DNA of 64,000 nucleotides from Lytechinus pictus (lineage: Eukaryota), in NCBI RefSeq assembly GCF_037042905.1, contig NC_087251.1:42906001-42970000 (forward strand), in the 5' to 3' direction. Shown in pieces: positions 13,901 to 59,800 of the stretch; the first letter of the stretch is position 1; each line of letters opens with the position of its first letter. The notes below the pieces were generated by a model. That model made no database searches, was not told the DNA's origin, and was given only the letters and a program-made list of their open reading frames with translations. Both the position numbers and the translations under genes were made by a program.

Positions 13901-16900
13901 AAGATATTTGAAAATACTGAGTTTAATCTGAAAAAAATAGAAGTGTGTTTAAATGTTAATTCTTGATATGTTTATCATTCAGACATGATCAGGAGAAGAA
14001 ATTTGAGGACGAGAGCCATCAAAATGCTGGTCCTGGACGAAGCAGATGAAATGTTGAACAAAGGTAACATGATAATAATTACGTTTTTAATAAGAAACTT
14101 TCTATGAATGTTATAATTTACATAGGTCTCTCTATTCATCATGTTTTGATCTTGTTTGATATGTGAAAGAAAAGATGCTGAACAAAGGTAAAAAATAATC
14201 GAGTCTTTCATGAGCTTTATAATTCATGTTTAAGTCTTTAAGTGTGGAAAATGCTGAAGATATCCATATTTTAGTATCTTAATACTGAATAGTTATGAGT
14301 ATTATTAATATTACCATCATTGCAGGAGCTGGTACAGGGTACTGTTTAGACCAACATGTTAACCTCCTCTAGAAATCAATTTGAATGGATATAGAGTACC
14401 AAAGTGTGACGTCATCAATTTTCACTTTTTGCATTTCAGCACTTCTTATACCATAATGAAAACCCCCCACTACCAGAATTTGGTGAGAATCGGTCCATGA
14501 GGCCCCAAGATATGACCATGAATACATAATTAGCCCCATTGAAGTCGATGTATTATTGGCCTGGTTCTAAAAGTTTGGAACCAGGTCAATAATACATTGA
14601 CTTCAATCGGGCTAATTATGGATTCATGAGGTCATATCTCAGGCCCCCATGTACCGATTCTCACCAAACTTTGGTAGTGGGGTTTTTTCATCATACTCTA
14701 CCAAATGCTGAAATGCTAAACAAGTTTTTTGTGACGTCATCACTTTGGTACTCTATACCACACTTATCTCCCATACAAGTCATATTTGTAATGAACAAGA
14801 TGGATTAGAATATACATCAAGGCATATAAAAAAAAATTCAGAGCAGTGACTTCCACGCAGGGAATCTTCGAATGGCTTATCTCATTTCTCACATGTCACC
14901 ATAGACAAAACAATGGGAATCGAATGCGGGAAAAGCCGCTGTGAAAAGATGCATAGGGTTTATACAGCGCGCGACACTGGCACTGGTCCGACGGTCCCAG
15001 ACCAGTAAAAAAAAATGCTGTCGGGCGAGTAACTTTTCAGAAAAAGCCAGACTTGCTGGTCCGACATGACCAGTAAGTTTAAATCTATCTGATACAAAAT
15101 ATATTTTCTTCTCTTTTGTAAATTATAAAAATGGCTCTGGCGTCTCAAAAAATGGCTCTCATGAATTATGTTGTGTGTGTGTATTTTTTTTTTTTGGGGG
15201 GGGGGTAACAATAAGCAATAAAAGAAAGCAAAGTAAACTCAAGTCTTTTTATATTTTTCTTTATTTCTTGGGACCAGTCAATTTTAGGTTCGGTCAAGTA
15301 AAAAATGGAAAACTGGGTATGTACTGGTCCGACATGATCAGGTCGGGCCAGTAGAAAAAAAGGGTTAGTGTGGAGCCCTGGTTTATAGCAGGATTCCTGT
15401 GAAGAGAAACAATACAGAGTTTTGACAAGATGCCTAAAGGTGCACCGTTGCTATTGCTATGACAAATTGGGTAACTTTTGTAGCTGAGGTTCACTTTACC
15501 CAGAGTGTTGTTGCCTAGTACATGAGTCTTTGAACTTTGAAACAGGTTTGTGGGTTCAAATCCCGGCCATGGCGTAATTTCCTTCAGCAAGACGTTGATT
15601 CACAATGTGCTGCATTCAACCCAGGTGTGTTAGATGGTACCGGCAGGAGGGAAGTTCTCAAAAAGCGCCGGAATCGTTAGCCAACCTTAGCCAGGGTAGT
15701 ATAGAAGCGCCTTGCGCGCCTCTCAAAGGGGATAAGTGTGCTATATAAATACCTTATTTGTACACAATTTCTGGTTTTCACCCACTAAATAATATCTGAC
15801 ATGATCTTATTAAATGGGTGAAAGCCAGAAATTGCATTCATGTATTGAAACTTCCCCAGCAAGCCTTCAACATCATTATTATTGTTGTTGTCATTGTCTT
15901 CTCTTATGATCTCATATTGTATTTGACAGGCTTCAAGGAACAGATCTATGATGTGTACAGGTACCTTCCTCCTGCAACCCAAGTAGTACTCTTCAGTGCC
16001 ACATTACCGCACGAGATCTTGGAAATGACCAGCAAATTCATGACAGATCCAATCAGAATCCTGGTCAAACGGTAAGTATGGCCAGGGCCCTGTCTTACAA
16101 AGAATTATGATTGATCTGATCAACCGAAACTATGGCAAGCCAGCAACACCATAAATGCATGTTTGCTCAAAATGTTTTCTAGATATATTGTATATTCATA
16201 CATTCATTGTTGTCTTGACAATTCAGTGTGCTCATTGTTTATAAATGTACATTTTGCTAATTTCTTGTAGGAAAAATTATGATATTGATGGGTTCATGTA
16301 TATATAAATCCTGACTGTCAGTCCTGAACAAGGTACTTGATCTAGATCCAGACTATGGGCTCATTTCATAAAGACTTTTCCATTATTGTAACTACCATGG
16401 TAACAGCATTCAACAACCAATCACAATAAAGGATTCTATGGAAGTCACAATAGTTGTAAGTATTTATGAAACAGGCCTCATATTTTTAAGGAAATTATAG
16501 GTCCAGAATAACGACAGGCATGTTGTAGAAGTGAAAGTGGATTTTGAATTTTTCATGGTTTATTAAATAATTTCATATATTGCATTGCCAATGTTTCTCA
16601 CAGTGATGAATTGACCTTGGAGGGTATCAAGCAGTTCTTTGTTGCCGTGGAGAGGGAAGAATGGAAGTTTGACACGTTGTGTGACCTCTACGATACACTC
16701 ACCATCACACAGGCTGTCATCTTCTGCAACACAAAGAGGAAGGTAAGAGATTTCACTCAAAAGAATATCTCAAAAATAACCCTTTTATTACCAAGTTATT
16801 CTTTTGTTTGGTGAATTTTATTGAATTTGATTCAATTGAAAATAAACGTTTGCGGGACTAGGAAACATTTAATGGAACAATAGTACTCTCAAAGAGATTA

Positions 16901-19866
16901 GGGTACATATTTTAGAAGCATTTTTATTATCCACCTTTCCTGGGTTCAGTGTCGGGGCTTTAGTTAATATAAGATATAGGGTTAGGGTTTCTATATGGTT
17001 TTATTTTAGGGTTAGATTTAGGATAGGGTATAGTGTTAAATCCAGGGTTGCAGTTTGTCATTGTGGAATTTACAGTGGAGCAATTGTCACTAGATCAAAT
17101 TTCATGGAACCTCCTTTTTAGATTAATTCCACACTGTACACCCGTTTTCTGCCTTCTATCAAAGAGAGCTTCCAATAAATAAGTCACTTCTGTTGGAAAG
17201 AAATATGTAGAGATAATAGGCTTCCCTTATTTCCTATAATTATGTCTTAATCAAACATGTTTTGCTTATCTTGTTGATCTTTGTTTCCTGTTTATTGGTT
17301 ATTTATTGTATTGCGTATGCATAGTTGAGTATATCCATTTAGAAATTGTGCAATATTAATTGACAATTATCATTTATCATTATTCTATTGTGAATTGAAA
17401 AGCCCTGTATTGATGATACCAATGCAATCAGAATATCATTTCATTTTCCTTTGTTTCATTAGGTTGACTGGTTGACTGAAAAGATGCGGGAAGCGAACTT
17501 CACGGTGTCGTCCATGCATGGCGACATGCCACAGAAAGAGAGAGAAGCCATCATGAAGGAATTTAGATCAGGGGCTAGGTGAGACAACCAGGAGCCCCTT
17601 TTCAGACTTACAACTATTGTAGCACTATTATTATTGTATATACCATGAAAATCCTGTTTTGTGATTGGCTGCTGAGCCCTGTTACCGTGGCAGTTGCCAC
17701 AATGACAACGTTAAAATAGTCGACTTCTTCATGAGATGAGACCCAGGACTATAAGTATTTTGGCTTGGATAAACTTGTCTTCATTTGTTCTAAATTCTAA
17801 ACAGATTATTCATTTAATGATGCTTAAGTTCTGTTGTTAAAAGAAATAAGAATACTAGTCGACATCTTCCTCTCGATTTTGATTTGCCGCTCTTCTGAGA
17901 TAAGGGATTAAATCGTGGTCGGTAATGTAGTTCAGTTGATTACGTATTGGGATGAAATCTAGGTTGTTGATTTGCAGGTGATGGGCATGGACATCATTAT
18001 TTACTGTGTGAAACGATCGATGTCCAAACTGTAATTGTATGGCATGTTTGTCTCCTAGTTCCTGGAATATGAGGCAACAAATACATTGATGTATTTTCCC
18101 TTGTTAACTACATGCCTGCTCGGTCAAAAGGCTCATGACGATCTAGTTCAATTAAAACAGTATACCTACCGTACTTTCATGATATGAATATAGAATTTCC
18201 AAAAATTAAAAATAGTACAGTACAGTCACGAAATGCAGAGCTCAGCCATCTAACTCAGAAAATCAAGATTATCTTTTACAGTTCTCTGACAATGCATATC
18301 CTCTAGCTGTGTTGAATATAACAATGCTTTCTTCTCTACTTCAATGCAGTCGTGTCCTTATCACTACCGATGTATGGGCCAGAGGTCTAGATGTTCAGCA
18401 AGTGTCCTTGGTTATCAACTATGATCTGCCAAACAACCGTGAACTCTACATCCACAGGTAATGTCACATGACACTCCTTGCGTTTTATAAAACGTGTATA
18501 CTTGTACATGCAAACTTCGCCTTTATTTTGACGTAATTCATTCTTGTTTATCCCAAGATATTGGTTGATCACAGTGTACCAAAGGTTGTTTCTATTTTCA
18601 ATTTATTTACAAACATACTTTAAACACTTCATTTTCCTGGGACCTCATTTTAAGATCGGGATTTATCATTCAGTTGGATTTATCTTTACTTTTTCAATGC
18701 TTTTCAAGTATTAGCACCAGTGAGAGTTCATTATGGAATGTCAAGCTAGGATTGACTTGCGTTTTCCATTTTCAATCAAACATGCAATGAATAGTGAGAT
18801 TTTTTGTGGGGAGAAAACGAGCGTGAAATATATTGGGGTGTCGGGTTGTCATATTCTTTGTAGCACTTTGTGGGTTAGTACTGTCGAGGTGGGCATTTGA
18901 AGTTAGCTGATTGTGTTTTCATAAAAACCACGTTTATTTCAAGATTGGTCGTTCGGGTCGTTACGGACGTAAAGGTGTTGCTATCAACTTTGTGAAGAGT
19001 GATGACATCAGGATTCTGCGTGACATAGAGAAAACGAGCATGAAATATATTGGGGTGTCAGGTTGTCATATTCTTTGTAGCACTTTGTGGGTTAGTACTG
19101 TAGAGGTGGGCATTTGAAGGTAGCTAATTGTGTTTTCATAAAAACCACGTTTATTTCAGGATTGGTCGTTCGGGTCGTTACGGACGTAAAGGTGTTGCTA
19201 TTAACTTTGTGAAGAGTGATGACATCAGGATTCTGCGTGACATAGAGCAGTATTACAGCACACAGATTGATGAAATGCCCATGAATGGTAAGAAAAATCT
19301 GACAAAGACATTTCATCCCCCCAAAAAAGAGAAGAAATTTGATTATTTTTAATAAGGTTAAAGGTGACAGTCTAACTTCAGTGGTAAAATGATACAGAAT
19401 TCCTTATTTATTAAAAACATGGTGCAATAATTTTCACATGCTACCACTGCAATAATTTTCTTTTTTTTAAAGGTATGACGAGGGGAGGGGGCATGTCAAA
19501 TTTGTAAAATGTGGCTCAGTTCTTTGATGAATGTTCTCTTAAGAGATGCAAGAATTGTTTTGATAATGCATCTATTAGCATTGCTGCATTTAGTTTCTTT
19601 AATGATATACCAGTATGGTTCCCATTAAAAAAAAACATATTATGCAACTTTAGGAATTTTTGTTTACTGTTCTTATGTCAATGTTATGCTGATCAATCCA
19701 AGTTTCTTGTAATTTCATTTATGTTCCCCCTTTCTGACACAATCTCTGAAAGATAAGGTTAAGCGTTGAAATTATTTCAATTTAAGGGCATGTATGAAGT
19801 GTTAATGTTGTATGTTATATCAATAATATAAATGTTCTTTTATTTGCAGTTGCTGATCTCATCTAG
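7862..19866 (+). CDS. EIF4A3: Eukaryotic initiation factor 4A-III (DDX48), EJC core DEAD-box RNA helicase; 12 coding exons, 398 aa
   Basis: Exons 7862-7991, 10654-10726, 11274-11340, 12061-12123, 12546-12678, 13983-14063, 15930-16071, 16604-16742, 17463-17578, 18350-18457, 19160-19287, 19850-19866 are all GT-AG, phase-consistent and total 1197 nt. Motifs: Q (GFEKPSAIQ), I (AQSGTGKT), Ia (PTRELA), Ib (TPGRVFD), II (DEAD), III (SAT), VI ([13 protein letters not shown]). [10 protein letters not shown] and the [18 protein letters not shown] end are eIF4A3-type rather than eIF4A1/2. Confidence 0.97.
8290..8778. mobile_element. MITE with CCCGG(G)nTACTC...GAGTG(C)n termini in EIF4A3 intron 1
   Basis: Terminal inverted poly-G/poly-C; an inverted partial copy lies at ~9315-9444. 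Confidence 0.7.
8843..9251. mobile_element. CAGTAGAGGCGC-terminus MITE
   Basis: Imperfect TIRs; flanks ATCAA/ATCGA; same family as 47277-47746. Confidence 0.7.
10654..10726 (+). CDS. EIF4A3: EIF4A3 exon 2 ([24 protein letters not shown])
   Basis: CAG acceptor, GTAAGT donor, Q motif. Confidence 0.95.
11274..11340 (+). CDS. EIF4A3: EIF4A3 exon 3 ([23 protein letters not shown])
   Basis: CAG acceptor, GTTAGA donor, Walker A. Confidence 0.95.
11500..11713. mobile_element. MITE with TAGGGACAGTGATTTTCCGTTT TIRs
   Basis: ~22-bp near-perfect terminal inverted repeats. Confidence 0.7.
12061..12123 (+). CDS. EIF4A3: EIF4A3 exon 4 ([21 protein letters not shown])
   Basis: CAG acceptor, GTGAGT donor, motif Ia. 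Confidence 0.95.
12229..12487 (+). mobile_element. tRNA-derived SINE
   Basis: A-box TGGTCTAGTGG, B-box GGTTCGAATCC, shared core TGCACTC.ACCCA.GTGAGG..ATGGGTACC. Confidence 0.75.
12546..12678 (+). CDS. EIF4A3: EIF4A3 exon 5 ([44 protein letters not shown])
   Basis: CAG acceptor, GTAAGA donor, GG and Ib motifs. Confidence 0.95.
13983..14063 (+). CDS. EIF4A3: EIF4A3 exon 6 ([27 protein letters not shown])
   Basis: CAG acceptor, GTAACA donor, DEAD box. Confidence 0.95.
14391..14757. mobile_element. MITE with TATAGAGTACCAAAGTG TIRs and long internal inverted repeat
   Basis: TIRs at both ends; internal palindrome ~14495-14650; short derivative at 31386-31476. Confidence 0.7.
15500..15757 (+). 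mobile_element. tRNA-derived SINE (degenerate)
   Basis: GGTTCAAATCCC B-box and the same core as other copies. Confidence 0.7.
15930..16071 (+). CDS. EIF4A3: EIF4A3 exon 7 ([47 protein letters not shown])
   Basis: CAG acceptor, GTAAGT donor, SAT motif. Confidence 0.95.
16604..16742 (+). CDS. EIF4A3: EIF4A3 exon 8 ([47 protein letters not shown])
   Basis: CAG acceptor, GTAAGA donor, motif IV. Confidence 0.95.
17463..17578 (+). CDS. EIF4A3: EIF4A3 exon 9 ([38 protein letters not shown])
   Basis: TAG acceptor, GTGAGA donor. Confidence 0.95.
18350..18457 (+). CDS. EIF4A3: EIF4A3 exon 10 ([36 protein letters not shown])
   Basis: CAG acceptor, GTAATG donor, motif V. Confidence 0.95.
18811..19247 (+). 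repeat. 217-bp tandem duplication of the intron 10/exon 11 boundary of EIF4A3 (partial pseudo-exon at ~18943-19030)
   Basis: Units start at 18811 and 19028 with a GAG microhomology at the junction; 7 substitutions by eye, including acceptor CAG|G changed to CAA|G in the upstream copy. Confidence 0.93.
19160..19287 (+). CDS. EIF4A3: EIF4A3 exon 11 ([43 protein letters not shown])
   Basis: CAG acceptor, GTAAGA donor, motif VI; this is the complete second copy of a local duplication. Confidence 0.93.
19850..19866 (+). CDS. EIF4A3: EIF4A3 exon 12 (VADLI-stop)
   Basis: TTTATTTGCAG acceptor; canonical eIF4A C-terminus; TAG 19864-19866. Confidence 0.9.
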
Positions 19867-19927: not shown

Positions 19928-20168
19928 GCGCCCATTCCATGAATCTTTCTATTGTATTCACCGTGCTATCGGTGGTAACTACTATGGTAACGGGGCTCAG
20001 CAGCCAATCAGAAGCAAGGTTGCCATGGTGACAGGGCTCAGCAGCCAATCACAATCAAGGTTGCCATGGTAACAGGGCTCAGCAGCCAATCAGAATCAAG
20101 GTTGCCGGGGTAGTCACCATGATAGCACAGTTAAATATAAGAGTAAGTTTTCATGCAACAGGACCCAG
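19928..20168. mobile_element. MITE with internal 41-bp tandem repeat (X-box + CCAAT) in the EIF4A3 3' UTR
   Basis: Degenerate TIRs; related copies with a single module at ~16357-16478 and ~17590-17747 (reverse). Confidence 0.6.
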
Positions 20169-21301: not shown

Positions 21302-21617
21302 GGCCTGACTCACTCTGAAGTCGGTTTTAACTTAAACTCAGGTTTTAAAGTTGTGGTTTAAGTATGGACAGCCAATTGTTACATAATCACTAACAGTAGA
21401 GATATCATACTTTCAGCTCATTCGGCTCTCAAATCATTCATAATTGTGTAGGAAGTATAAATAGATGATTGTCTTCACCATCGATGAATCAGGACAGGGC
21501 ACAGTAAATATAAGAAACATACAACTTAATAAAAATTTTGATACTTTTGGCTTTCCATACTTAAACCACAACTTTAAACCTGAGTTTAAGTTAAACCCGA
21601 CTTCAGAATACGGGGCC
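21302..21617. mobile_element. MITE; second copy at ~28958-29250
   Basis: Long TIRs (TCTGAAGTCGG.TTTAACTTAAACTCAGG...); internal sequence closely similar to 28958-29250. Confidence 0.75.
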
Positions 21618-21933
21618 AAGGTGTCTAAAATATTACAATGGAGATTACAGACTACATCCTCAAATGTCTTATTGTTCCTGATCTGTTTGAATCTTAACCT
21701 TTTTATTAGACCCAGAAAAAGAGATATTTGTAATACACATCTAAGCATTGTGTCAATCGGAAAGTGTAGGATGGGATGTATTCAGTTTACATAGATGTTT
21801 TTACAAATATTGTTAAAATAGTTATGTAACATTCATTATATTGCTGCCGTTGCAATGAAAGGTTTCATGAGATTATGGATTTGATCAATATTTTGAATAC
21901 CCCCTGTCAGTAGAATTTTGTTTTCTTTTGTAC

Positions 21934-21939
21934 AATAAA
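21934..21939 (+). terminator. Candidate poly(A) signal of EIF4A3
   Basis: AATAAA followed by a GT/T-rich tract ~2.1 kb after the stop; not confirmed. Confidence 0.35.
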
Positions 21940-22833
21940 ATGATTTAAAAGTATTTAACGAATGGTTTTCAGTGTCTCAGAATGTTTTGAGTGTTATAGA
22001 TGAAGTCGTGCAGATTGAAGTGAGATGATTCTAAGTGAATGTGGTCCGCACCTGTGTTGTGGAATGGCATTTGATTACAGCTCATATGGTTCATCTATGA
22101 ATAGTTCTCGAGACACCTTTTCTTATGAATACAGGTATATTGCCTGTTTTCAGGCTCTGACAATTTTCCATTTCATGCACTTACAGGCTTTATTTTGTAC
22201 AGTACACACAGGCCTTAACATGTTTTGGCTTTCCTTTTTTTCAGGCCCAATGGGTAAAACCGACTGTCATTTTGGATAGTTCATATAATAACCAGTTGCT
22301 CTAAAATATTCCCATTTTATATTTCATGTTTACCTGGGGCCGTTTTGTAATATGTATGTCTGGTTACATGTTCTTGTGCTTGATATATCGCTTTGTAGGT
22401 GGTTTGAACCTGAGAACATATTCCAGTCATGCTTAATTTTATGAACAACTTTATGACTCGCGATTTAGATGTAGGAACAATAAGACTGATTCATTGATCT
22501 AGTAAGATCAAATGATGTTTCAAGGTTTGCATGGTGTTATGAACAATCGCGGAAGTGGTTTACGGTACACCATGTGTAAAGTCCTGGAAGGACTGAGATA
22601 AAAGTGGATAGAGGTTGAAGTGGAGTGGAGGTTGGGAAGTAGAGTATTCTTTTCAGAATGAGTGTAGTCCTTAATAGGACTGTAAACCAGGAGTGAAAAG
22701 CTGAGTAGTAGGCAAGGGTGAGAGGCTTGAGTAGGAGGCTGGTTGGGTAGCAGAGGTGAGAGAGGCTTGAGTCGGCGAATGTAGATGTAGAGCAGGATCA
22801 GCAGGAGAGGAGACTCAACGTTTCGGCAGGTTG

Positions 22834-23396
22834 GAGACGGACAGGCAGAAGACAGACTGTCAACTCAAGACGGACAGTCAACTCCTGAAGACAGACTGTC
22901 AACTTCTGAAGACAGACAGTCAACTCCTGAAGACGGATAGGCTGAAGACAGACTGTCAACTCCTGAAGACGGACAGTCAACTCCTGAAGACAGACTGTCA
23001 ACTCCTGAAGACGGACAGTCAACTCCTGAAGACAGACTGTCAACTCCTGAAGACAGACTGTCAACTCCTGAAGACGGACAGTCAACTCCTAAAGACGGAC
23101 AGGCTGAAGACAGACTGTCAACTCCTGAAGACAGACTGTCAACTCCTGAAGACAGACTGTCAACTCCTGAAGACGGACAGTCAACTCCTAAAGACGAACA
23201 TGCTGAAGACAGACTGTCAACTCCTGAAGACGGACAGGCTGAAGGCAGACTGTCAACTCCTGAAGACGGATAGACTGAAGACAGACTGTCAACTCCTGAA
23301 GACGGACAATCAACTCTTGAAGACTGACAGTCAACTCTTGAAGACTGACAGTCAACTCCTGAAGACGGACAGTTAACTCCTAAAGACGGACAGGCT
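22834..23396 (+). repeat. Minisatellite, 21-bp unit GAAGAC(A/G)GAC(T/A)GTCAACTCCT with interspersed 15-bp variants, ~28 units
   Basis: Directly visible; explains the LLKTD(C/S)Q and LQELTV(C/R) ORFs. Confidence 0.95.
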
Positions 23397-23402
23397 TATC
23401 CT

Positions 23403-23932
23403 GGGGCGGTATTCTGAACATTGTCTTTTCTCCATATTTTATCTTTTCTCAGAGATATGACAGAATCGGTATTCTGGTGGATGTCATAACTTTTGTCACA
23501 AAAATTGTCATAAATTTCGTCTCTTCTCTTTAGCGCGCACCAAAAATACGCGGCTTTAAATGCGCATAATCCTTTTATACAAGCAAAAGATATGACAGGG
23601 GGGTAGCAGTCATAAATTTTGTCATATCTTTTAGTACCAAATATCCTGCCGACTGAATGTCAAGCATCAATATTCGCGTAGTTGCGCGATGCCAGCAACT
23701 GTATCGGGGATACGCCCTACCTATCACAGGGCTTTCCTATTGGCTAGAAGGGCTCCCACCGGGAACTAACGATGAATTTGATTGGTTTGCTTCCGAAAAA
23801 GATGGGCGGAAACTTTGAGAGATATGACAGGGAAAAGACAATGTTCAGAATACCGATTTGTGACAATCATAGCAGTGTCACATCTCGGAGAGAAATGACA
23901 AAATTTATGACAGTGTTCCAGAATACCACCCC
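23403..23932. mobile_element. GGGG-terminus MITE nested in the Penelope-like insertion
   Basis: TIRs GGGGCGGTATTCTGAACA / TGTTCCAGAATACCACCCC. Confidence 0.7.
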
Positions 23933-26341
23933 TGATTACAGCTCCATTCGCCGACTCAAGCCTCTCTCACCTCTCTCATCCAATCAGCCTTCTACTAGAG
24001 TCTCACTCTGGTTTACAGTCCTTTTATGGACTGCGCTCATTCCGAATTCTCTAATTCCCATCCCCATTTGTTCGCATTCCATTTCACTTCTATCTCTATC
24101 CACTTTTATCTCAGTCCCTCCAAGACTGTACACATGGTGTGCCGTAAACTACTTCCGCGATTAGTAAGATCAAGCCATTGACTGAAGGGGGGAGGATCAA
24201 AGTGGCAATTACACTAAAGTTGACCATTAGACAAGGTATATTGTAAGCCCAGGAAGGCATGAGAACAATTTGTAGCAGGGACCAAACTGATACCAGGAAG
24301 TAATTTCAAAAACTTTTCTTAACCTTCACTCAATATTGACTGGTGATTCTTTCTTGTGCTAAATGAGAAACCAAAGAAAAATTCCCAGTTTTAACAAAAA
24401 TGGGAGTAAACTTTCTGTATTTCCAATCAAATCTAATCCATCAAATTTCCTCCCTCTGGGCAACGTTATTGGAAATCTCGTCACAAAAAGGTCACCAGTC
24501 GTACATACATTACAAATTCATGGTGTGTCATTACATATGTATACATGTAAATAGATGTGTTATTTCATTTATATTCTCAGTGTAAACAATTCATTTTTTC
24601 TCAAATACTAACCAAAATGCATCCATTAACTGAGAAAATTTGCATTTAAGAAAAATATGATTTGAAAAAGTCAAAATATAATCCTATTGAAAAATGTTTG
24701 GTGCCTTTTATTATAGAAAATGACATACATGAAATTATGCTTGTTACAAATTAAAGGATTATGTTAAATTGGGGACAGCCTCTCCCCCCCTCCCTCCCCC
24801 GCTTGCAAGTCTCCTGTCTCAAATTTACTTGCCTCTCTCTTTCACTCTCTTCTCTCCCCCCCCCCCCACCCCCCTTTCTCAGACTTTACCTCTTCTCTGT
24901 AACTATACTGTTCATGTGACGAGGTCCGAGACAAAATCTATTTTCATAGGTGAAAGTGTTTATTGTTGAACTGCATACTTGCAAACAAGATACACTGCTG
25001 CTAACAGGTTATAACACGGAATGTACATTGTATAACCTGAACAAAGATATATGAAAAACATGAACCAAATGTACAACTTCTTACAAAAGTACTTATAAAA
25101 TGAAATCATCACTTTTATGTGGACGTCCATACTCAAACTTGATAAATTCTGGTGTGATAAAAATAAGTTACATATTTACAACGATCAAGTCACAAGAAAG
25201 TTATTGGTATATTTACAGAAGGAACAGCATTAGCTTTACGTTAGATTGCTTGTGTGGTGTGCTTTCATAATTTGTGCTACCTGTAATGCTAAACGGATCA
25301 ATACTTTGGAATTTATCATACAATTCGACGGGACAAATGTTGAACTCTTAGGAGACAATATGATAACCCTGTATCTGGTTGGGTTGAGTTGGCTGGAGTT
25401 TGCCGTCTTTTCTGCTTTCGATTTTCATTATTGCCCCATGAGACGAAATGGGATTACATTGAGATTCTGACCGTCAAACTTCTCATGCCAACAGGGTGAG
25501 TTGGCATGAGAAAGACTCATACATGTAGGATGGCTTTTTGATTGATATTCCACTACCTGCAGTTCACTGTACAAAGCCTGAATTGGAGAAAAGCTTAATT
25601 GGAAGATATGCGGCCCAAAGTACTGTAATGAATGCTAGGTAATGTAGCATGTTGGTTGCATAGCAGGTAGCACAAATTTAGAACCCATATTGTGAATCTA
25701 TGCATGATTCTGAATATTCAGTTGGATTAAGCATCATAAAGATATAATACAGAAGTTACCTTCTTAAAGACACAACTTGATCACAAAAAAATGATATATT
25801 GGAGAAACCCCTTCCCCGAAATACTCGATGACAGCTCTTTAAGAACCTTTAAACGGTGTGAGGTTGACCACAGTGCTAGAACATCATATATAACAAGCAG
25901 TTCAGATCGTATTGTGTAGTATAACCACACCGTTTTCCCCTCCACTTGAAGGGTATCCCATTAAGTATGTAAAACCTGAAATGTTGGGGTATTTGTTCAA
26001 CTTACATATGAAAAATTGAAGTGCTTCCAAATTATAATGGCTTGGGCAGATCACACAGAGAAGTAAGAATGGAGAAAACGGGATCGGACATACCAAATGG
26101 TCGATCATTTGATGGAAATGACATTGACATGCTGTTATGTCAGGAATTTACCTAAAAGTGACTGGAAACTTATCCTTCGTTTTGGTTTTCAATATCAGTT
26201 TTTCTAATATTTCTGGGATTTTGTGAGCTTCAAGCATCAACAATCAAGGTAACTTTTTTTTTTACAAATCCTCCCCGATGCTGCAATCCTATCACCCCTC
26301 TGTTCCGAAACCCTTCAATAAAACTAATGAACACATCCTTC

Positions 26342-26570: not shown

Positions 26571-29500
26571 CTTGATAGGGGGAGAAAAAGTGGGAAAGAT
26601 GATCAGATATGGAATAAAAATTAAATGAACATTTAAATCATGATTCACGAATATAATTTCTTCAAAAGTTAACTACAGGATTAAAACAATTCATACTTGG
26701 TACATGAACTGACAACTAGCACTCCATAAATGTGTGGTCTCAATTAACACTGCGATAACTGCAATATGAGAATACCACCCATTGACTACCAGAATTTGGG
26801 TTACAAAATCTAATCAATCCATACATACGGCATTGTCGCTTGGTTGCTAAAACCTTGTGTCTCATAATTAACGATTTTGAGAATATCTCAGAATTTTTTA
26901 GAATTATGAATTAAGTAGCAACCTTCTTTTGCCTGGAAAGTTCTCTTCAGGAATTATGAGACTGTTTTCAGACATTTTCTTCTAAAATGTTCACATAAAA
27001 GACTGAACACCCTAGCAACAACATACAACAACTATAAAGACCCTTTTAGGGAAAGGAAAACCAATTTGAGAAAGAGAAGTGGTGAATAACATGAGTCTAT
27101 AGAAATGTGTATGAAATCCAAGCATTCTTACTTCTCTGTTCCGAAGGCATAGGCACCAGGCCATAGGTTTGACTGGATGATGGCAATAGCATACTGAGGC
27201 ACCAAAGTGGAAGATAAGCGAGCGCTCCACGCCGGCACGGTGTCAATTTCTGTCAAAGCACAAACACGATTTAAAAAAATCATTAATGTAAGTAATTATC
27301 GAAGAACCGTGTTTATTTGTAGAATTGTCAAACCAAAGACTAGTATTGTTCATACAGTTAAAAAAAAAAACAATATCTCTCAAACAGCATATTCAATAAG
27401 GGCAGATTAGAAATTAAAGGTCTAGCATTTAGCTGCCGAATGATCATGGACATCACTATTTCACAAGTGATCTAAACAATCCCTTAGCACTCCTGTGACA
27501 AGAAAGAATACACAATAAAACAATGACAATGGAAGTATGTTCTTACAGGTTCAAGCAAGTAATAATTCACGTTGGCTGAGAAAAATCACATTCAGGATTG
27601 AAATGCAACAGGTTTCAACCTGTTTTTGTTGTTGTTGCCATGGCAATTAACATAAAAACAGACACATTTCAAAATATCTTTATCTCGATATATTATCTTG
27701 CACACAGATATTTAAGCACTATTTTCAGCTTGAATATTATAGCTCTAACATCATGCACGTTCAGTGAAAGATACAAGAGAAAAATAACAGAAAACGTAAA
27801 AGAATTATCAGAATACAGATTTTATTGTAACTCTGAAGATACACCAATATTTGTGTTTAGACGATTTTCAGAATACGGCCCCAGAACTCACCAACGTCCT
27901 CAGAGAGGGGCGTGAGAAGAGGAGGTCCAACCTCTGGTTCCGGTTCATCGGGTTCTTCTCTCTCCTCTTCCTCATCTTCATCTTCAAAGTCATCCTCCTG
28001 TTGCTGCACTGGATTGAACCACGAGCATCGACCCTGGAGAATGGAATAGAAGACGTTAATAATAATAATAATAGGCATTCATATAGCGCCATATATCTAG
28101 AAATATTCTATTCCAAGGCGCGATGTTATTATTATTATTACCCCGGCTTTAGCTTGAGCTGCCTTTCAGCGCTCATGCATTCAAGGGATTAATCCTGCCG
28201 GGTACCCATTCACCTCACCTGGGTTGAGTGCAGCACAATGTGGATGAATTTCTTGCTGAAGGAAATTATGCCAGGGCTGGGATTCGAACCCACGACCCTC
28301 TGTTTAAAAGTCAGAAGACTAATCCTATGGGCCACAGCAACGCTCCAATGTTGAAATTGGTTTAATGTATATTGGAATTTTTTTCTCTTTGTAAGTCATT
28401 CTAATACATCAATTTACTGGTAAAGGGTAGTTTTCTACATAGCAAGAAAATATTAGACACCCTTTCCAATAGCAATGTCATATTTTCAACAGAGATACAT
28501 GTACAATAATAAACATAATATCATCACCAAGGCTCTAATATATGGGGGGATGTAAAAATTAAACTAATAATTTATCGAAGACTTAAATGAAACTTCTACT
28601 AATGATAAATAGTAATAACGAAAGATACTCTGCTGTCAACTGACAAAAGGAATCAACTCTTGATTTTTTTCTCCAAAATTTACTTTAATTTCTTGATTCT
28701 AGATATTTTTTGTATGCTCTACATGGAATTGGAGTCACATAGCCCCAAATTTCTGAAATATAGAAGTTTCAAAAGCAGTTATCTCTATATATTTCCACAT
28801 AAACAATGTCACATTTTCCTCCCTTACTAAGAAACTCATTCAACAAAGTTGCTTTTGTCAGTGGACAGCAGTAGTCACAAATATACACCTTTAGGTCTCT
28901 TCAGTGATTCAAACAATACCCCCACCCAAGATGTCAAAATGTATTGTACGTGTCACAGGCCCGTAATCTGAAGTCGGGTTTAACTTCAACTCAGGTTCAA
29001 AGTTGTGGTTTAAGTATGGATAACCAACTGTTACATAAATCACTAACAGTAGAGATATCAAATTTCAGCTCATTTGGCTCTCAAATCATTCATAATTGTC
29101 TAGGAAGTATAAATAGATGATTGTCTTCCCCATCGATGAATCAAGAAAGAGCCCAGTAAACATAAGAAACATACAACTTAATAACCATTTTGACACTGTT
29201 GGCTTCCCATAATTTTAGCACAGAGTTAGACCGTGGCCCAAATACGGGCCACAGAGTCGAAGTTAGAAAGGGGCATGATTGACTCCATACCTGAGGCAGA
29301 ATGTGTTGTACATGATGTACCCAGTTAGCCATAGATGGGTCTACAAGATCCTTCACTGGGATGCCTTCAAAGTCGGGACTCTCGATGAAGCTATCACGGT
29401 CTAAAAGAAATCGAGAAAAGTTTCATGACGAAAACCTCCATTTGAGAACACTATACCCGTTTCCCTCTTCATCAATTCTCTTCTCCAAGTACGACAAACC

Positions 29501-36400: not shown

Positions 36401-39400
36401 ACTGTAAATTAGTTTAAAGTTTATTCATAAATATGTGTTTTGTCCTTGTATAATTATATCCATTCTTCCAATTTTTGTTGGTAAACTGAAAATTTTCTGG
36501 CTGAGAGTTGCATGTTTGAATTTTTTTTTTTAATACACCAATTCTATTCTATAGAGAGTCAAGAAAAGTTTAGTTCTTACCTCAAAGAGAATCCTCTGTG
36601 TTTCCCCTAGTTGTACTTCTGCGGTTTTGTCTACCTTATCTAGGATTGTGTCGGATGTGGATGTGAACTTTGATTTCTTCACATTCTTACTGATGTCCTC
36701 AAATACATCTGAAAGACACAATGATATATTTCAAACTGACTTACATGTGTTTCAAATTTCTATCAAATCAAGCTTGACTGAATATCATACTGTATTACAC
36801 AATAGTACACAGAATAGAAGAAAGACTAGGCTCACAATCATAGAAATTTATGAGACAAGGCACCATATTATATATTAATACTGGTATTTGTTTTTACCGA
36901 CTTCTGGACTTTGGTCCATGCTGAAATAGTCTGCACAAAGGAGTCAAATGTGTTTCCAATAATTCAGAGCAGATCCCACTTCTTTAGCAAGGTGCCTGAT
37001 GAAAATGGTGCTCAGTTTTAAAAATGTGCAGATTATTTTGACACGGCTCTTCAGTTATACATTTAATTTTTTCATTATTGGCATGGACCATGATTTTCGA
37101 AAGGGGTGGTAATGCACAGCAAATGATTAGTTGACAATTTAACATTCTATAAATACGGGCTCAGGTTAAGATGAATTCAATATATTGGCATATTAACCGT
37201 CCAAACATAACAAAGTACAGTGAACATTACCATTTTTTCATAAGTTAATTTGTTGATTTTTTTTTAATGTTTATTCTAACATGTGAGGATTATTACAATG
37301 TAGCATTTTCTCTTGGAGATATTTTTTATCTTCCTTTTAAAATGAATATCAGAAAGCTACAAAGATTATATCCTGAGAGTTTTAGCCCATATAGTTGGGA
37401 TCAAATTTCAACCCCCTAAGAAAACAAGTGGAACGCCTCTGGCAGTCTCGCCTGCATTACGCGATTTAATATAGTAGCAGTGCTAACTTTGAAAACTACT
37501 ATAAAATAATCATTCACAAAAACACCATTCATATAATGACATAATACCACGTTCATTGACCATAAATGACATTTGAACGGTGACTTAAGACTTGTCAACT
37601 ACACCCATGTCCACATTTCATTCACTCTATCAATAAACTTTCAAAGTTATGATGGCAATTCAACAATTACCCCAACATTGATTAAGTTTATTGACCTTAA
37701 CTGACCTTTGACCTTGGTTTTGTGACCTGAAACTCACAGGGGATGTTCAGTGACACTTGATTACTCTTATATCCCAAGTTTTATGAACTAGATCCATAAA
37801 CTTTCAGAGTTAGGTTGGTAATTCAACAAATACCCCCAACACGGCCAAAGTTCATTGACCTTTCATGACCTTTGACCATGGTCATGTGACCTGAAACTCG
37901 TACAGGATGTTCAGTGATACTTGATTACTCTTATGTCCAAGTTTTATGAACCAGATCCATAAACTTTCAGAGTTAGGATGGAAATTTAACAAATACCCCC
38001 AACACGGCCAAAGTTCATTGACCTTAAATGACCATTGACCATGGTCATGTGACCTGAAACTCGCACAGGATATTCAGTGGTACTTGATTAAACTAATGTC
38101 CAAGTTTCATGAACTAGATCCATAAATTTTCAAAGTTATGATGGTAATTCAAAAAATACCCCCAACTTGGCCAAAGTTCATTGACCCTAAATGACCTTTG
38201 ACCTTGGTCATGTGACCTGAAACTCAGGCAGGATGTTTACTCATACTTGATTAACCTTATGTCTAAGTTTCTTGAACTAGATCCATAAATTTTCAAAGTT
38301 ATGATAGTAATTCAACAAATACCCCCAACTTGACCAAAGTTCATTGACCCTAAATGACCTTTGACCTTTGTCACGTGACCTGAAACTCAAGCAGGATGTT
38401 CACTAATACTTGATTAACCTTATGTTCAAGTTTCATGAACTAGGTCCATATACTTTCTAAGTTATGATGTCATTTCAAAAACTTAACCTTAGGTTAAGAT
38501 TTGATGTTGACGCCGCCGCCGCCGCCGTCGGAAAAGCGGCGCCTATAGTCTCGCTCTGCTATGCAGGCGAGACAAAAATGCAATCATTTTGATTTTGGTT
38601 GAAGTATTCCGAATCTGACCCAAATAAGTTTTCTTACAAATCAGAAAATACATCTAATAAAATATGTTTTTACTTCAAATCTTTATAAAAGAGGTTTAAT
38701 ATTTCTTACTACTCACCTACTACATTTTCTGGTCTCTCATCTAGAACCTTTGTCAGTATTCTGCTGAGGTGATCATATCTGATTGAAAAAAAGAAAGAAA
38801 AAAAACTTGCAGCATAAATCATTTGTACAGCTTTCCAGCTACTAATTTCATGTTTCACAATACGGCACAAAATTTCGCGTTAGATTAAAATTGTGAAGAC
38901 CTGTGTAGACTGTATGTGCAGCCTGTAGCCAAAGGGCACCATTCCAAAAATGTACTAATTTAGTAATTAATTGATTCATATGAATTATGTGCATTGACTG
39001 TCGAGAAAACTCAGACTCAAGAGTATGGGGGGAGCTAAACCTACACTTTGTTTACAAACAATGAAGACTACATGTATGACAAATTTGAACAGATTGTCTT
39101 TCTCTTATTTGTAGTAAATATTTTAATTTAACCAAGAAAAAAAGACTCACTAAAATGAAAATCCTGCCATGTTTTCAAAACAACTTGTTTTACTTATTTC
39201 ACTGTCCAATGTGCAAGGGGTCCTAAAGTCACAATTTTATTTATCATGCAGAGAAATTGTAATTCCTGTGCCTCAATTTTCTTAATCATGTTCATAGGAA
39301 AACATAAAATTAAAGTGAATATAAATCTCAAACTTGAAACAGTTGCAGATTTTTTCTGCATTTTGTCAATTATGAAACCTTGAGAAAATTAGGAATTATT

Positions 39401-46179: not shown

Positions 46180-46348
46180 AGAGATACAGAGATACGAACT
46201 CATATCCGTCCACCAACTGCCGCAGTGTTGACGCCCTCTACGTTTGTGTTGACGATCCGCAAGCGAAATATCGAGAGCGCTGACTGGAGGTGGTTTTACG
46301 AATTGTGGACCAAAAAACGGAATTACTAACCATTTTCTTTGTGTTTGC
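46180..46348 (+). promoter_or_regulatory. Candidate SAV1 promoter / non-coding first exon
   Basis: Non-repetitive CpG-rich patch ending in a GTGAGT donor at 46349; the first SAV1 coding exon has an acceptor just upstream of its ATG, so an upstream exon is expected. Inference only. Confidence 0.35.
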
Positions 46349-56810: not shown

Positions 56811-59800
56811 GTAAGCATCTTCTGTTGTTTCTGACTTCTGCGTTTGACTATAGGATCTATCAACGTTGGGGCTGATTGTTGGAACATGTAAACATCGGAG
56901 AACATTTCTATCTAGTATATCGAATCTAGTATACACTATATAATTCACATTTTACACATGTGCCATTTATCTAATAAAGGCTTGCACAAATATTAAATAG
57001 GGTCTGTTCTTTATATCATTGAGATGAAATTTTACGCTTATCATTTTATTTATTCATTCTTTAAAATATAATACCTAATGTAAATCAGGATGATGCATAC
57101 ATTCAATCAAACATATGTATGTAAGCTAAAACAAGATATCACAGAAGCTTGTAATCTTAATTTAACAGAACTCATTTGTTGTTGATATCCAGGCTACATG
57201 AGTCCCGTTCAACGCAATGGCCCAGCCTTGAAGAGACCATCTCAGATACCATCAGGAGGACAGCCGGGGAACACAAACCCAGCAGTACCCCAGTGGGAAC
57301 CAATAGGGGCACCTGTCGGACGACGGCCTGGTCTAGCGCAACTGGGTCTACCAGACTTTACCAAAGATAATGGACAGCCACCAACAGGTACCGGTAATTC
57401 TTGTAATATATGCAGTTTAAACCTTTATCCTACTAAGTTCCAATATGGTATGGTCTGATAATCATTTCCTACTTTATTCAATATACCTTCATCACCATCA
57501 TTGGGCAGTATAATCATCATCTTCATCATCATCATCATCATTACCATCACCATTATTATTACCATCATCACCATCATTATCATCATCATTATCATCATCA
57601 CCATCATCACCATTATCATCACCACCATCATCACCATCATCATCATCACCATCATCCTCCTCCTCATCATCATCATCTCCACCATCACCATCATCATCAC
57701 CATCACCATTATCATCATAATCATCATCATCATCACCATCATCACCATCACTATCAGCATCACAATCATCATCACAATCACCATCATCATCACAATCACC
57801 ATCATCATTATCACCATCACCATTATCATCATAATCATCATCACCATCACTATCATCATCATCACAATCACCATCACCAGCAACATCATAATCATCACCA
57901 ACATCACCATTATCATCATCAACATCACCATCATCATTGTCATCACCATTATCACCATCAACATCACCATCATCATTATCACCATTATCATCATCACCAT
58001 CATCACTATCATCATCACCATAATCATCATCATCACCATCAAATTCATCATCATCATTATCACCATTATCATTATCATCACCATCACCATCACTATCATC
58101 ATCACCATCATCATGTCACCATCACCAGCAGCATCATAATCATCATCATCACCATCACCAACATCACCATCGTCATCACCATTATCATCATCATCATCAA
58201 CATCATCATTATCACCATCAACATCATTATCATCATTATCACCATTATCATCATTATCATCATCACCATCATCACCATCAACACCATCACCATCACTATC
58301 ATCATCACCATCATTATCATCATCATCACCATCATCATTATCACCATTATCATCATAATCATCACCATCACTATCATCATCACCATCATCATCATGTCAC
58401 CATCACCAGCAGCATCATAATCATCACCAACATCACCATCGTCATCATCATTATCACCGTTATCATCATCATCACCATCAGCATCATCATTATCATCACC
58501 ATCAACATCATCATCATCATCTTCTTCTCCATCTCCATCCCCCTCCTCCTCATCACCAGCATCATCTCCATCTCCACATTTCCATCCCCTCCCCCCCCCC
58601 ACCTCCAGCTTATGGAGTATTCCTTACTACTCATAAAGGTACCAATACCATTCATTGAGGTAAACAGTGATAGTCATTCTCTGTCCAAACTATCTTCACA
58701 GTGACTTATTTCTTTGTTTGTTTATTTGTTTTTGCCCCAAGAACACCATAGTGGATATGGTGACCGTGGTTTGCCCAGTCAACGAGGGGGGTCTCCCCAT
58801 CTCCCCGCTAATGCCTTTAGACAAGACAAGCCACCTCATGTTGGTAAGTAAAATACCAAAGTCTTACAAAGGGTTACGATTGATCCAATCGACTACAACT
58901 ATGGAAAGCCAGCAATGTCACCATTTAAACTACACTTGTTCAGACTGTTTTCTAGATATACATGTAAGGTATATTTATACATTCATTGTTTTCTTTAAAA
59001 TTCTGCGTGCTTTTCTTTGTTGACAACAGACATTGTGCAAATGTCCTGTAGAATAAAATTGTGACAGAGATGGATAGCTTAGGTTGATCGAATCATCGTA
59101 ACCCTTTGTAAGATGGGGCCCAGGGTCCTGTTTCACAAAGAGTTAAAATTGATCCAATCGACCACAAAGTATGCAAAGCCAGCAAGTCAACATTAAAAAT
59201 GCATATTTTTCAAATTTGTTTTTTAGATTGATAATAAATGTTGTCTTGACAATTCAGTTTGCTCCTCCTTGTTTCCAAAAGACATAGAACAATTTTCTGT
59301 ATGAAAAATGATGACTTCGATGGATTTCTATATATCGGATCAATCATAACTCTTTGTAAGACTGGACTCTGTCGAGCCTGTATTGTTCAGGAACAACCAT
59401 AACCATGACAATTGCTTTCTGAAAATTCACGCATCTATATCTCACTTTCAACTTGAAATTATTTTGATATGTCTCCCTGTCGGTGCATTTACATGCAATC
59501 CTTTGTACAGCAAAAAATAAAAATAAAAGAATTGCAGCTACATGTATATTTGAGTGCATTTTTAACATATGCCCTTATAAATAGGTCTGATATTTCAATT
59601 TCTTTGTCAATTTTACAGGAAATTGATTTTTGTTATCTTTTAAATTTGATCCAAGTTAAAGGCAACAAATGCATTCACCCAAGAGTCAAATCAATATTTT
59701 AATTATTTTACTTCCTAAACGAATAATTAAATGATTTTCAGATACAATACAATGTGTCCTTGGATCCAAATCAGTCCTAGCCTAGAATTTAATATGAATA

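Follow-up and report, generated by a model that had tools for sequence, protein, structure and literature searches.

In Penelope-like elements (PLEs) the tail has a length of 30-40 bp (PMC8557442, PMC11167929, PMC3846280), and the typical layout includes an inverted pseudo-LTR (pLTR), a target duplication of 9-10 bp, a 31-bp tail on one arm and a head-to-head junction (PMC3846280). The Pen2a_Av/Pen2 derivatives of Adineta vaga share with the locus described here the head-to-head pLTRs of about 200-300 bp enclosed by one short target duplication, a tail of 31-33 bp on one arm only with an ATG-opened frame at the very end, a short overlap at the inverted junction, and an internal deletion; in contrast, at our locus there is no ORF body between the arms, which enclose an array and a MITE instead, and the arms are just 86% alike (PMC3846280). 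In Anolis carolinensis, the Poseidon element PAc also has two classes of genomic 3' ends split by an AC-rich tail, an AT-rich target and a hammerhead upstream of the 3' end; however, PAc is autonomous, and about 100 nt separate its hammerhead from the RT start sites, compared with about 270-300 nt here (PMC11167929).

Minimal hammerhead ribozymes (min-HHRs) of metazoan PLEs have been aligned in Fig. S2 of PMC4209133. The rows S. purpuratus (2) and Patiria miniata resemble the locus in the core CUGANGA, an extra base before stem II, a 6-bp stem II with the loop UCAAC, the GAAA, a palindromic CG stem III and a stem I of 3-4 bp; neither row is marked as PLE-linked, and S. purpuratus (2), which has no asterisk, is not tied to a PLE ORF in that figure. 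Pairs of motifs on opposite strands, 100-700 bp apart, were noted in the same work. In contrast, the locus has no whole motif; the minus strand contributes a single 3' half and the plus strand about 29 5' halves. The animal non-LTR retrozymes are likewise tandem repeats that originate from the pLTR region of a PLE and carry hammerhead sequence (10.64898/2026.07.22.740005). Nonetheless, each of their units contains the entire hammerhead and is able to cleave as a dimer, while the 15-21-bp units found here correspond to the 5' half only and cannot cleave, so that the defining tandem arrangement of two or more consecutive units, all with an entire hammerhead, is absent. Finally, transposon-derived minisatellites, which account for 23% of the human minisatellites in one study, likewise arise when a piece of a transposon is duplicated locally in tandem and expands over time; the difference is that here the amplified piece is half of a ribozyme core, with a visible microhomology seed of ~2 nt (PMC3389668).

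In this work we analyzed an insertion contained in a window of 64,000 nucleotides, the whole stretch of DNA under study, using repeat parsing, motif scans, in silico folding and public reads. We conclude that the locus is very probably an old PLE insertion, formed by two 5'-truncated pLTR ends joined head to head, that reached its present, most likely inert state in five steps. It is an ordinary PLE relic with a curious array, and illustrates clearly how the end of a PLE decays through inversion, deletion, array growth and the nesting of a MITE.

Target duplication, arms and tail

The insertion is delimited by the following features:

22500-22511, plus strand: left target-site duplication of 12 bp, with an exact second copy at 24162-24173; the depth of the repeat family begins at 22512
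22512-22544, minus strand: optional tail of 33 bp, at the 3' end of the inverted copy, with no counterpart on the right arm
22545-22812, minus strand: inverted (left) pLTR arm, downstream of the hammerhead cut site, multi-copy in DNA contigs
23935-24162, plus strand: right (sense) pLTR arm, which stops at the tail-less end and has its final base in common with the duplication
24162-24173, plus strand: right target-site duplication of 12 bp, identical to the left 12-mer

The earlier note had proposed a PLE-type inverted insertion bracketed by a 12-bp direct repeat, and this reading is borne out by the arms, the 12-mer, the tail and the family ends seen in reads. The 12-mer occurs only twice in the window, at 22500-22511 and 24162-24173 (12 of 12 bases identical), and abuts exactly both family boundaries observed in public reads; an exact match would arise by chance at a given fixed position with a probability of 1.9e-7. 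The two inverted arms that the note described are indeed head to head and 86% alike (185 of 214 aligned columns, 23935-24162 on the plus strand against 22545-22791 on the minus strand), with 13.6% of the columns mismatched and two indels, one of roughly 26 bp and the other of roughly 14 bp. The frames of both arms are interrupted and their ORFs gave no Pfam matches, no RT or GIY-YIG coding sequence is present at the locus, and the folding of the left 501 nt is not unusual (z = -0.75). The 33-bp tail had been overlooked; on the minus strand its A+C content is 67%, and an ATG within it opens seven codons that run to the end of the element.

Public reads were examined over 21630-22870, and included two DNA runs of a second organism (organism B; runs X11 and X13) and a stranded RNA run (X21). 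The DNA depth jumps at 22512 from 444 to 99,481 in X11 and from 559 to 96,663 in X13, with heterogeneous loose ends, and a second class of family ends is found before 22544/22545 (11 records of X13 and three of X2). Since the repeat family ends at both 22512 and 22544/22545, it carries the signature of a PLE tail. The DNA depth of ~99,000 at 22512-22553 compared with 99-196 at 22806-22847 has the polarity expected of 5' truncation, bearing in mind that read depths are not copy numbers and that the fall toward the hammerhead is confounded by subfamily divergence. The pattern of the family 3' end had no matches in viral, metagenome and prokaryote-genome collections, which are not expected to contain this animal.

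The left junction, flank and element together, is bridged by two contigs of organism B (X11 record 4 and X13 record 16), which indicates that the insertion is old. Both DNA runs of this organism carry the junction, and no empty allele was seen in them. In one bin of 23 bp within the array, the depth was 54 in X11 and 0 in X13. The flank differs by ~8% from that of organism B (16 other letters in one 199-nt contig).

In the first step of the history that we propose, target-primed reverse transcription would have begun at two sites 33 nt apart, leaving the tail on one arm only, and the 12-bp target would have been duplicated; the resulting structure is observed, and the mechanism is borrowed from the Poseidon study (PMC11167929). 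Alternatively, the arms could be independent insertions, in opposite orientation, of related subfamily copies, or derive from two RNA templates, the 12-bp repeat being the product of one of the events or fortuitous. The arms, with their mismatch and two large indels, differ more than the flank does from that of organism B, and the coexistence of these differences with a perfect 12-mer leaves room for two templates or two events. However, the 12-mer abuts both classes of family ends exactly, a putative microhomology is present at the junction of the two copies, and head-to-head pairs inside one duplication are a documented form (PMC3846280); we therefore consider independent origins of the arms improbable.

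By our arithmetic, the 12-mer would stay perfect alongside the 13.6% arm mismatch and the two large indels in about 17% of cases.

The two halves of a hammerhead and the flanking genes

The inner end of the left copy includes the following features:

22813-22834, minus strand: 3' half of a minimal type I hammerhead, equal from the GAAA onward in 13 of 13 bases to the Patiria miniata row (Fig. S2 of PMC4209133)
22832-22834: head-to-head inversion junction, with a putative 3-nt microhomology deduced from the sequence and the published motif

On the minus strand, the 3' half reads from a remnant of loop II (22834-22830) into the 3' strand of stem II (22829-22825), the GAAA (22824-22821), the palindromic stem III, the cut site between 22817 and 22816, and the 3' strand of stem I. 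A minus-strand 3' half at 22813-22830 had been claimed before and is present. The comparison with the Patiria miniata row was made by eye; a match of 13 of 13 bases within 60 bp of the array has a P of 1e-4. When the window was scanned with a generic 3'-half pattern that includes the correct stem I bases, two occurrences were found compared with 0.28 expected from shuffles, and the probability of finding one within 60 bp of the array is about 5e-4. The second occurrence, at 46264, was discarded given that it has no core and no hammerhead around it.

The 5' half is found on the plus strand as the repeated unit of the array. The unit that we designate b is identical to the S. purpuratus (2) row in 20 of 22 bases, loop included (P 1e-10 per place, 9e-4 corrected). 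This match changes the register of the pairing proposed for stem II, GG(A)CAGG/CCUGCC, since the 6-bp stem II and the UCAAC loop of the published relative are those of unit b, and the last G of the proposed stem derives from the far side of a deletion described below. The match of both halves to published min-HHR rows supports, at the level of sequence, the assignment of a hammerhead motif to the pLTR.

It could be argued that the likeness to a hammerhead is due to chance and that the array is an unrelated minisatellite, given that Rfam returned no matches and that the stem II strand of the left copy has 5 nt, one short of the published 6. We find this extremely improbable in view of the two matches to published rows and their P values, and because reads from elsewhere show contiguous forms: two further transcribed loci extend from the core through stem II and the loop to the 3' strand (34 and 60 reads), and one of them reaches GAAAC (read consensuses of 30 letters each).

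No contiguous hammerhead was found in the window by Rfam at the gathering threshold or by two descriptor scans of both strands, no core lies upstream of the minus-strand half, and the plus strand has no usable 3' half. Neither strand carries a whole ribozyme, and the locus is most likely inert. A modelled unbroken motif did not adopt a hammerhead fold as a monomer, as expected for min-HHRs, and the pattern of the intact hammerhead was absent from metagenomes and viral contigs, which are not expected to contain this animal. It has been reported that GUC and AUC are the best cut sites, yet a GUU target worked well (PMC9217987); the GUU of the locus was consequently not used as evidence of a poor cut site.

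The insertion lies between two genes, whose ends are marked by the following features:

21934-21939, plus strand: probable polyadenylation signal of EIF4A3, located about 560 bp before the insertion; the RNA coverage has ceased by 21923
24707, minus strand: second candidate polyadenylation signal of the radial-spoke-head gene, proposed from the sequence
24959-24964, minus strand: putative polyadenylation signal of the RSPH4/6-type gene, separated from the insertion by about 790 bp

The neighbours had been named as EIF4A3 and RSPH4/6, in agreement with an exon that matches eIF4A-III (E 1e-24) and with three minus-strand exons that match the Pfam family Radial_spoke (PF04712). It had also been speculated that read-through could transcribe both halves and the dsRNA arms, and that a ribozyme could assemble in trans. 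In a fuller version of this model, read-through from EIF4A3 would supply the 5' halves and RSPH4/6 the 3' half, and cleavage or the dsRNA would regulate the gene pair. In silico, the halves taken alone pair as in a hammerhead (-12.0 kcal/mol), 20 intact cores are available, and a transcript of the whole element would fold back with about 200 long-range pairs. However, each half binds its own antisense far more strongly, at -33 to -37 kcal/mol; a minus-strand RNA running through the array pairs with the plus-strand RNA as a plain duplex (-53.8) that leaves the 3' half unused, and a short minus-strand RNA binds at only -4.7 and not in the hammerhead pattern. Read-through on the EIF4A3 side is also absent from the stranded RNA run, of which 6% was examined: X21 depth is 9-26 on the EIF4A3 3' UTR, 0 in the nine bins from 21924 to 22301, and 0 on both strands at 22806-22870, where the cut site is without reads. 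In addition, even an intact min-HHR has no activity as a monomer and little as a dimer (PMC4209133), and the anole hammerhead requires its protein (PMC11167929). We give hardly any credence to regulation by a ribozyme assembled in trans.

Origin and growth of the array

The sense copy begins with the following feature:

22832-23393, plus strand: minisatellite with about 29 repeats of the 5' half of the hammerhead, as judged by TRF, parsing, and the match of unit b to S. purpuratus (2)

The array had been described as a minisatellite of ~28 units born from half a hammerhead, with a clean 19-bp copy of the unit. TRF reports a period of 21 and 27.6 copies, and parsing yields 28 units from 22846 to 23403 (13 of type a, nine of type b and six of type c) plus a leading partial unit of type c; the 19-mer was found once, at 23220, and the origin from half a hammerhead agrees with the 20 of 22 bases that unit b shares with the published sea-urchin min-HHR. 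Unit b, of 21 bp, extends from the 5' strand of stem I to loop II and is the commonest ancestral unit; unit a is unit b with two substitutions, and unit c, of 15 bp, bears the scar of a deletion. Twenty cores are intact and three carry the change G5>A, among them that of the last unit, which has the deletion scar as well. No minisatellite made of ribozyme halves was found in literature searches, but minisatellites of transposon origin are common. A 201-aa frame through the array was discarded as coding, its repeat having only a sub-threshold leucine-zipper match.

The copies would have been joined, in the second step, inside the hammerhead through a 3-nt match between the core and loop II. At the junction, the TGA of the core is the reverse complement of the TCA of the loop, and a single A>G change at 22834 would account for the mismatch at the junction in both copies. 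In the third step, a jump back from loop II to stem I would have duplicated the sense 5' half as unit b, and a deletion of ~32 bp would have removed the sense 3' half; both changes are read directly from the sequence, and the order in which they happened, as well as their occurrence during reverse transcription, is conjectural. A longer direct repeat flanking the core of the family was also considered and rejected: only a 2-nt match can be claimed, and the sequence upstream of stem I is known for ~4 bases.

The mutations shared by the units show that the array was amplified at the DNA level. The shared derived variants comprise the changes of unit a in 13 units, G5>A in three, two others in two units each, and the deletion scar in seven. 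In the fourth step, ordinary slippage or unequal exchange accordingly expanded b, the mutant a and the scarred c to about 29 units. A higher-order period of 99 bp is also present. Over the whole array there are 19 differing sites, not fewer than a decay of 4% predicts (P 0.22); only the centre is homogeneous, with one difference in 246 bp (P 4e-4 for a segment picked after looking).

A further possibility is that the hammerhead fold acted as a stall or template-switch site for the telomerase-like RT of the PLE, so that the junction and the first units were made by realignment during insertion, the complementarity between the core and loop II being used at inversion junctions, and turnover at the DNA level only enlarged the array later. 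The relationship of PLE RTs to telomerase (PMC4209133) fits this idea. Supporting it as well, the sense copy starts within the 7-nt core in three of three cases, namely the locus and two RNA loose ends resembling inversion junctions among the 24 listed of 561 loose ends, a small, hand-picked sample. Moreover, the leftmost unit starts inside the core, but the stem I bases of unit b lie upstream of that start and could not have come from a truncated DNA copy. In contrast, an unstable head-to-head palindrome that later suffered a deletion at its centre would look identical, and for units a and c and the G5>A variant the mutation clearly preceded the amplification. Stalling of the RT at the fold is thus possible but unlikely; it refines the history proposed here and does not replace it. 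If true, the hammerhead would shape the structure of the insertion without cleaving, and it has been shown that cleavage is not required for PLE insertion in vitro (PMC11167929). The locus would matter more if the junctions of the family cluster in the hammerhead core.

Deletion and nested MITE

Between the array and the right arm the following features were identified:

23393/23394, plus strand: junction left in the sense copy by the loss of about 32 bp, as judged by register against the left copy
23394-23403, plus strand: initial 10 bases of the right arm, which precede the MITE; the last three are the left CTG duplication of the MITE
23404-23931: MITE of 528 bp with terminal inverted repeats starting GGG; CTG target duplication at 23401-23403 and 23932-23934

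The deletion removed loop II, the 3' strand of stem II, the GAAA, the cut site and 14 bases beyond, and sits 10 bp upstream of the MITE. The earlier note had placed the loss of the sense 3' half at the MITE itself; it is instead a separate event, because the 10 bases that precede the MITE belong to the arm and keep its register, being identical in nine of 10 positions to 22802-22793 of the minus strand, which is their best match within the left copy. For the same reason, we discarded a stem II hairpin completed by the last unit itself at the MITE, as the bases involved belong to the arm.

In the fifth step, the MITE inserted cleanly into the right arm, whose sequence rejoins in register once the element is taken out; its limits, previously given as 23403-23932, are corrected to 23404-23931. 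NuwaI transposons have a CWG duplication and GGG ends, and the inner MITE shares both, although it is non-coding and of 528 bp (PMC4482050); its CTG duplication and GGG termini suggest a NuwaI-like element of the PHIS superfamily.

Layout and class of the insertion

The 12-bp direct repeat that had been proposed to bracket the insertion is real and occurs exactly twice in the whole window. Between its two copies lie the head-to-head arms that were also expected, which agree at 185 of 214 aligned columns and differ by two large indels, and between the arms an array of period 21 and 27.6 copies. The parts of the locus are as follows.

22500-22511 and 24162-24173: 12-bp direct repeat
22512-22544: 33-bp tail, by which the left arm exceeds the right arm
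22545-22812, minus strand: left arm (minus copy)
22813-22834, minus strand: 3' half of the hammerhead
22832-23393, plus strand: minisatellite array, about 29 units
23404-23931, 528 bp: MITE, termini starting with GGG, CTG on either side
23935-24162, plus strand: right arm (sense copy)

The location between EIF4A3 and RSPH4/6 is supported: the former flanks the insertion on the plus strand (match to eIF4A-III, E 1e-24) and a radial-spoke-head gene (PF04712) on the minus strand, and candidate poly(A) signals at 21934 and at 24959 or 24707 make the insertion intergenic. Immediately to the left of the duplication, at 22386-22511, DNA depth climbs to 280-560 and RNA reads show up, and the target itself may thus be part of, or adjoin, a different and older repeat.

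Reads of four public runs were mapped to the stretch 21630-22870. At 22512 the DNA depth rises from 444 to 99,481 in X11 and from 559 to 96,663 in X13, both runs from a second organism (organism B), and loose ends before this position agree poorly in all four runs, which indicates many insertion sites. A second class of ends, before 22544/22545, is represented by 11 records of X13 and 3 of X2, another of the runs, and coincides with the point where the right arm stops. The tail between both classes is 67% A+C; at 22537 the T of the window, where nearly all family reads carry G, is a private change of this copy. According to PMC11167929, two end classes 30-40 bp apart with an AC-rich tail between them are common to all Penelope-like elements (PLEs) and unique to them, and PMC3846280 gives as their typical structure inverted pseudo-LTRs within a single 9-10-bp duplication, one arm being tailed; inverted arms, one duplication and a one-sided tail are likewise found here. 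Toward the hammerhead the depth drops to 99-196, as 5' truncation predicts, depth being no copy number and subfamily divergence adding to the drop. The Penelope-like identity suggested by the earlier note therefore stands to this extent, that the insertion behaves like, and passes as, a non-autonomous PLE as judged only on its ends, tail, duplication and motif, the defining mark of the class being a link to RT plus GIY-YIG.

In each DNA run of organism B one contig crosses from the flank into the element (22349-22548 in one run, 22343-22548 in the other), with 37 bases on the element side and 16-17 other letters; the insertion is thus older than the split from a lineage that differs by about 8% here. 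No empty site was seen in the mapped reads or contigs of the four runs across 21630-22870.

Origin and growth of the array

The array is composed of 13 units of type a, 9 of type b and 6 of type c, behind a leading partial c. Compared by eye, unit b (21 bp) shares 20 of 22 bases, from stem I up to and including loop II, with the S. purpuratus (2) row of Fig. S2 in PMC4209133; P is 1e-10 for a single place and 9e-4 once corrected for both strands and 56 rows. From GAAA, the minus-strand 3' half matches the Patiria row at 13 of 13 bases, the position of the GAAA column, listed apart in the figure text, being taken from the consensus line. These matches bear out the claim of a minisatellite born from half a hammerhead, and that of unit b indicates that b is ancestral, unit a being b with two substitutions. 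In the same figure text an asterisk denotes a PLE link, and both rows are without it. In X21, a stranded RNA run, loose-end consensuses from other loci behind 22550 (34 reads, agreement 0.96) and 22581 (60 reads, agreement 1.0, reaching GAAAC) start in the core, cross stem II with its loop and enter the 3' strand; the halves are therefore contiguous elsewhere in the family, with the whole motif in no single 30-letter consensus.

The loss of the 3' half from the sense copy had been placed at the MITE, but about 32 bp are missing separately at 23393/23394, 10 bp upstream of it. When the MITE is removed in silico the right copy aligns gapless to the left copy at the insertion point, and 23394-23403 matches 22802-22793 (minus strand) at 9 of 10 positions in register; the MITE thus went in cleanly. 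The GGG termini and CTG on both sides resemble NuwaI elements, whose marks, in PMC4482050, are GGG-starting termini and a CWG duplication. Because unit c (15 bp) copies the deletion junction, the last G formerly assigned to stem II does not belong to it.

At the inversion junction, 22832-22834, a single A>G accounts for the changed loop in the minus copy as well as for the changed core in the first plus unit, which suggests that core and loop overlap there by 3 nt. The leftmost unit starts inside the core and unit b has bases upstream of that start; the origin of the first unit fits either a jump on an RNA template or the loss of sequence, at a later time, from the centre of the palindrome. 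All three recognisable inversion junctions among the 24 loose ends listed, of 561, have a sense copy that starts in the core, and on this basis it is conceivable, if rather unlikely, that the hammerhead is a site where reverse transcriptase stalls and switches.

Derived variants common to several units (the a type in 13, the scar in 7, a G5>A change of the core in 3, two further variants in 2 each) imply duplication after mutation, that is, growth at the DNA level, and the array has a 99-bp higher-order period. Its centre holds 1 difference in 246 bp where about 10 were expected (P 4e-4, for a region picked after looking); over the whole array 19 sites differ, which is no fewer than 4% decay would lead one to expect (P 0.22). 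Transposon-derived minisatellites are described as common in PMC3389668. A literature search that covered few subscription journals returned no paper on arrays built from half hammerheads, nor on inversion junctions centred on a hammerhead.

Transcription and activity

No whole hammerhead was detected on either strand of the window by Rfam and descriptor scans; the locus thus has no whole contiguous motif on one strand, as an active hammerhead has, and it is not a retrozyme, the array units holding the 5' half only. The G5>A change, present in three units including the terminal one, inactivates hammerheads. G5 is a position of the catalytic core, and G5>U is used to inactivate hammerheads in PMC9217987. 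Even intact minimal hammerheads are described in PMC4209133 as inactive monomers and weak dimers.

The earlier note had also raised read-through of the locus between the convergent genes and, as a speculation, assembly of the halves in trans. In the 6% of X21 that was read, on the EIF4A3 side and through 22870, the EIF4A3 3' UTR has a depth of 9-26 on one strand, whereas depth is zero in the nine bins of 21924-22301 and on both strands at 22806-22870, which speaks against read-through from EIF4A3. Of 577 mapped reads 29 are at least 99% alike and 89% continue into sequence unlike the stretch, so most arm reads come from other copies; several UTR sites differ from the window, and X21 thus represents another individual or population. 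In silico, the two halves on their own pair with -12 kcal/mol, against -33 to -37 kcal/mol for either half with its antisense, and a minus RNA that reads through forms a plain duplex with a plus RNA; activity in trans is very unlikely. The insertion is well explained, and the locus is most likely inert.

Other repeats in the window

A second match to the generic 3'-half pattern of the hammerhead, at 46264-46275, has no core upstream and was judged to be chance. The short element at 27809-27881 resembles the inner MITE in its termini (70% over 77 columns) and has a GGG end adjoining CTG; it is probably a shrunken relative. Two related interspersed repeats, in the EIF4A3 3' UTR (about 21304-21620) and in an RSPH4/6 intron (about 28960-29240), likely represent another MITE family. 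EIF4A3 also carries a 217-bp tandem duplication (18811-19244, 210/217 identical) of an intron end and the beginning (5' part) of the exon that follows, the acceptor AG of the upstream copy being changed to AA so that a possible AG is left, out of frame by one base, and a 41-bp unit repeated three times in the 3' UTR (19984-20106), with similar sequence in introns near 16390 and 17660. Tandem arrays occupy 1-713 (234-bp unit, 3.1 copies) and 37607-38469 (163-bp unit, 5.3 copies), and 57513-58521 is a degenerate ATC-type microsatellite of about 1 kb in which several open frames encode low-complexity peptides.
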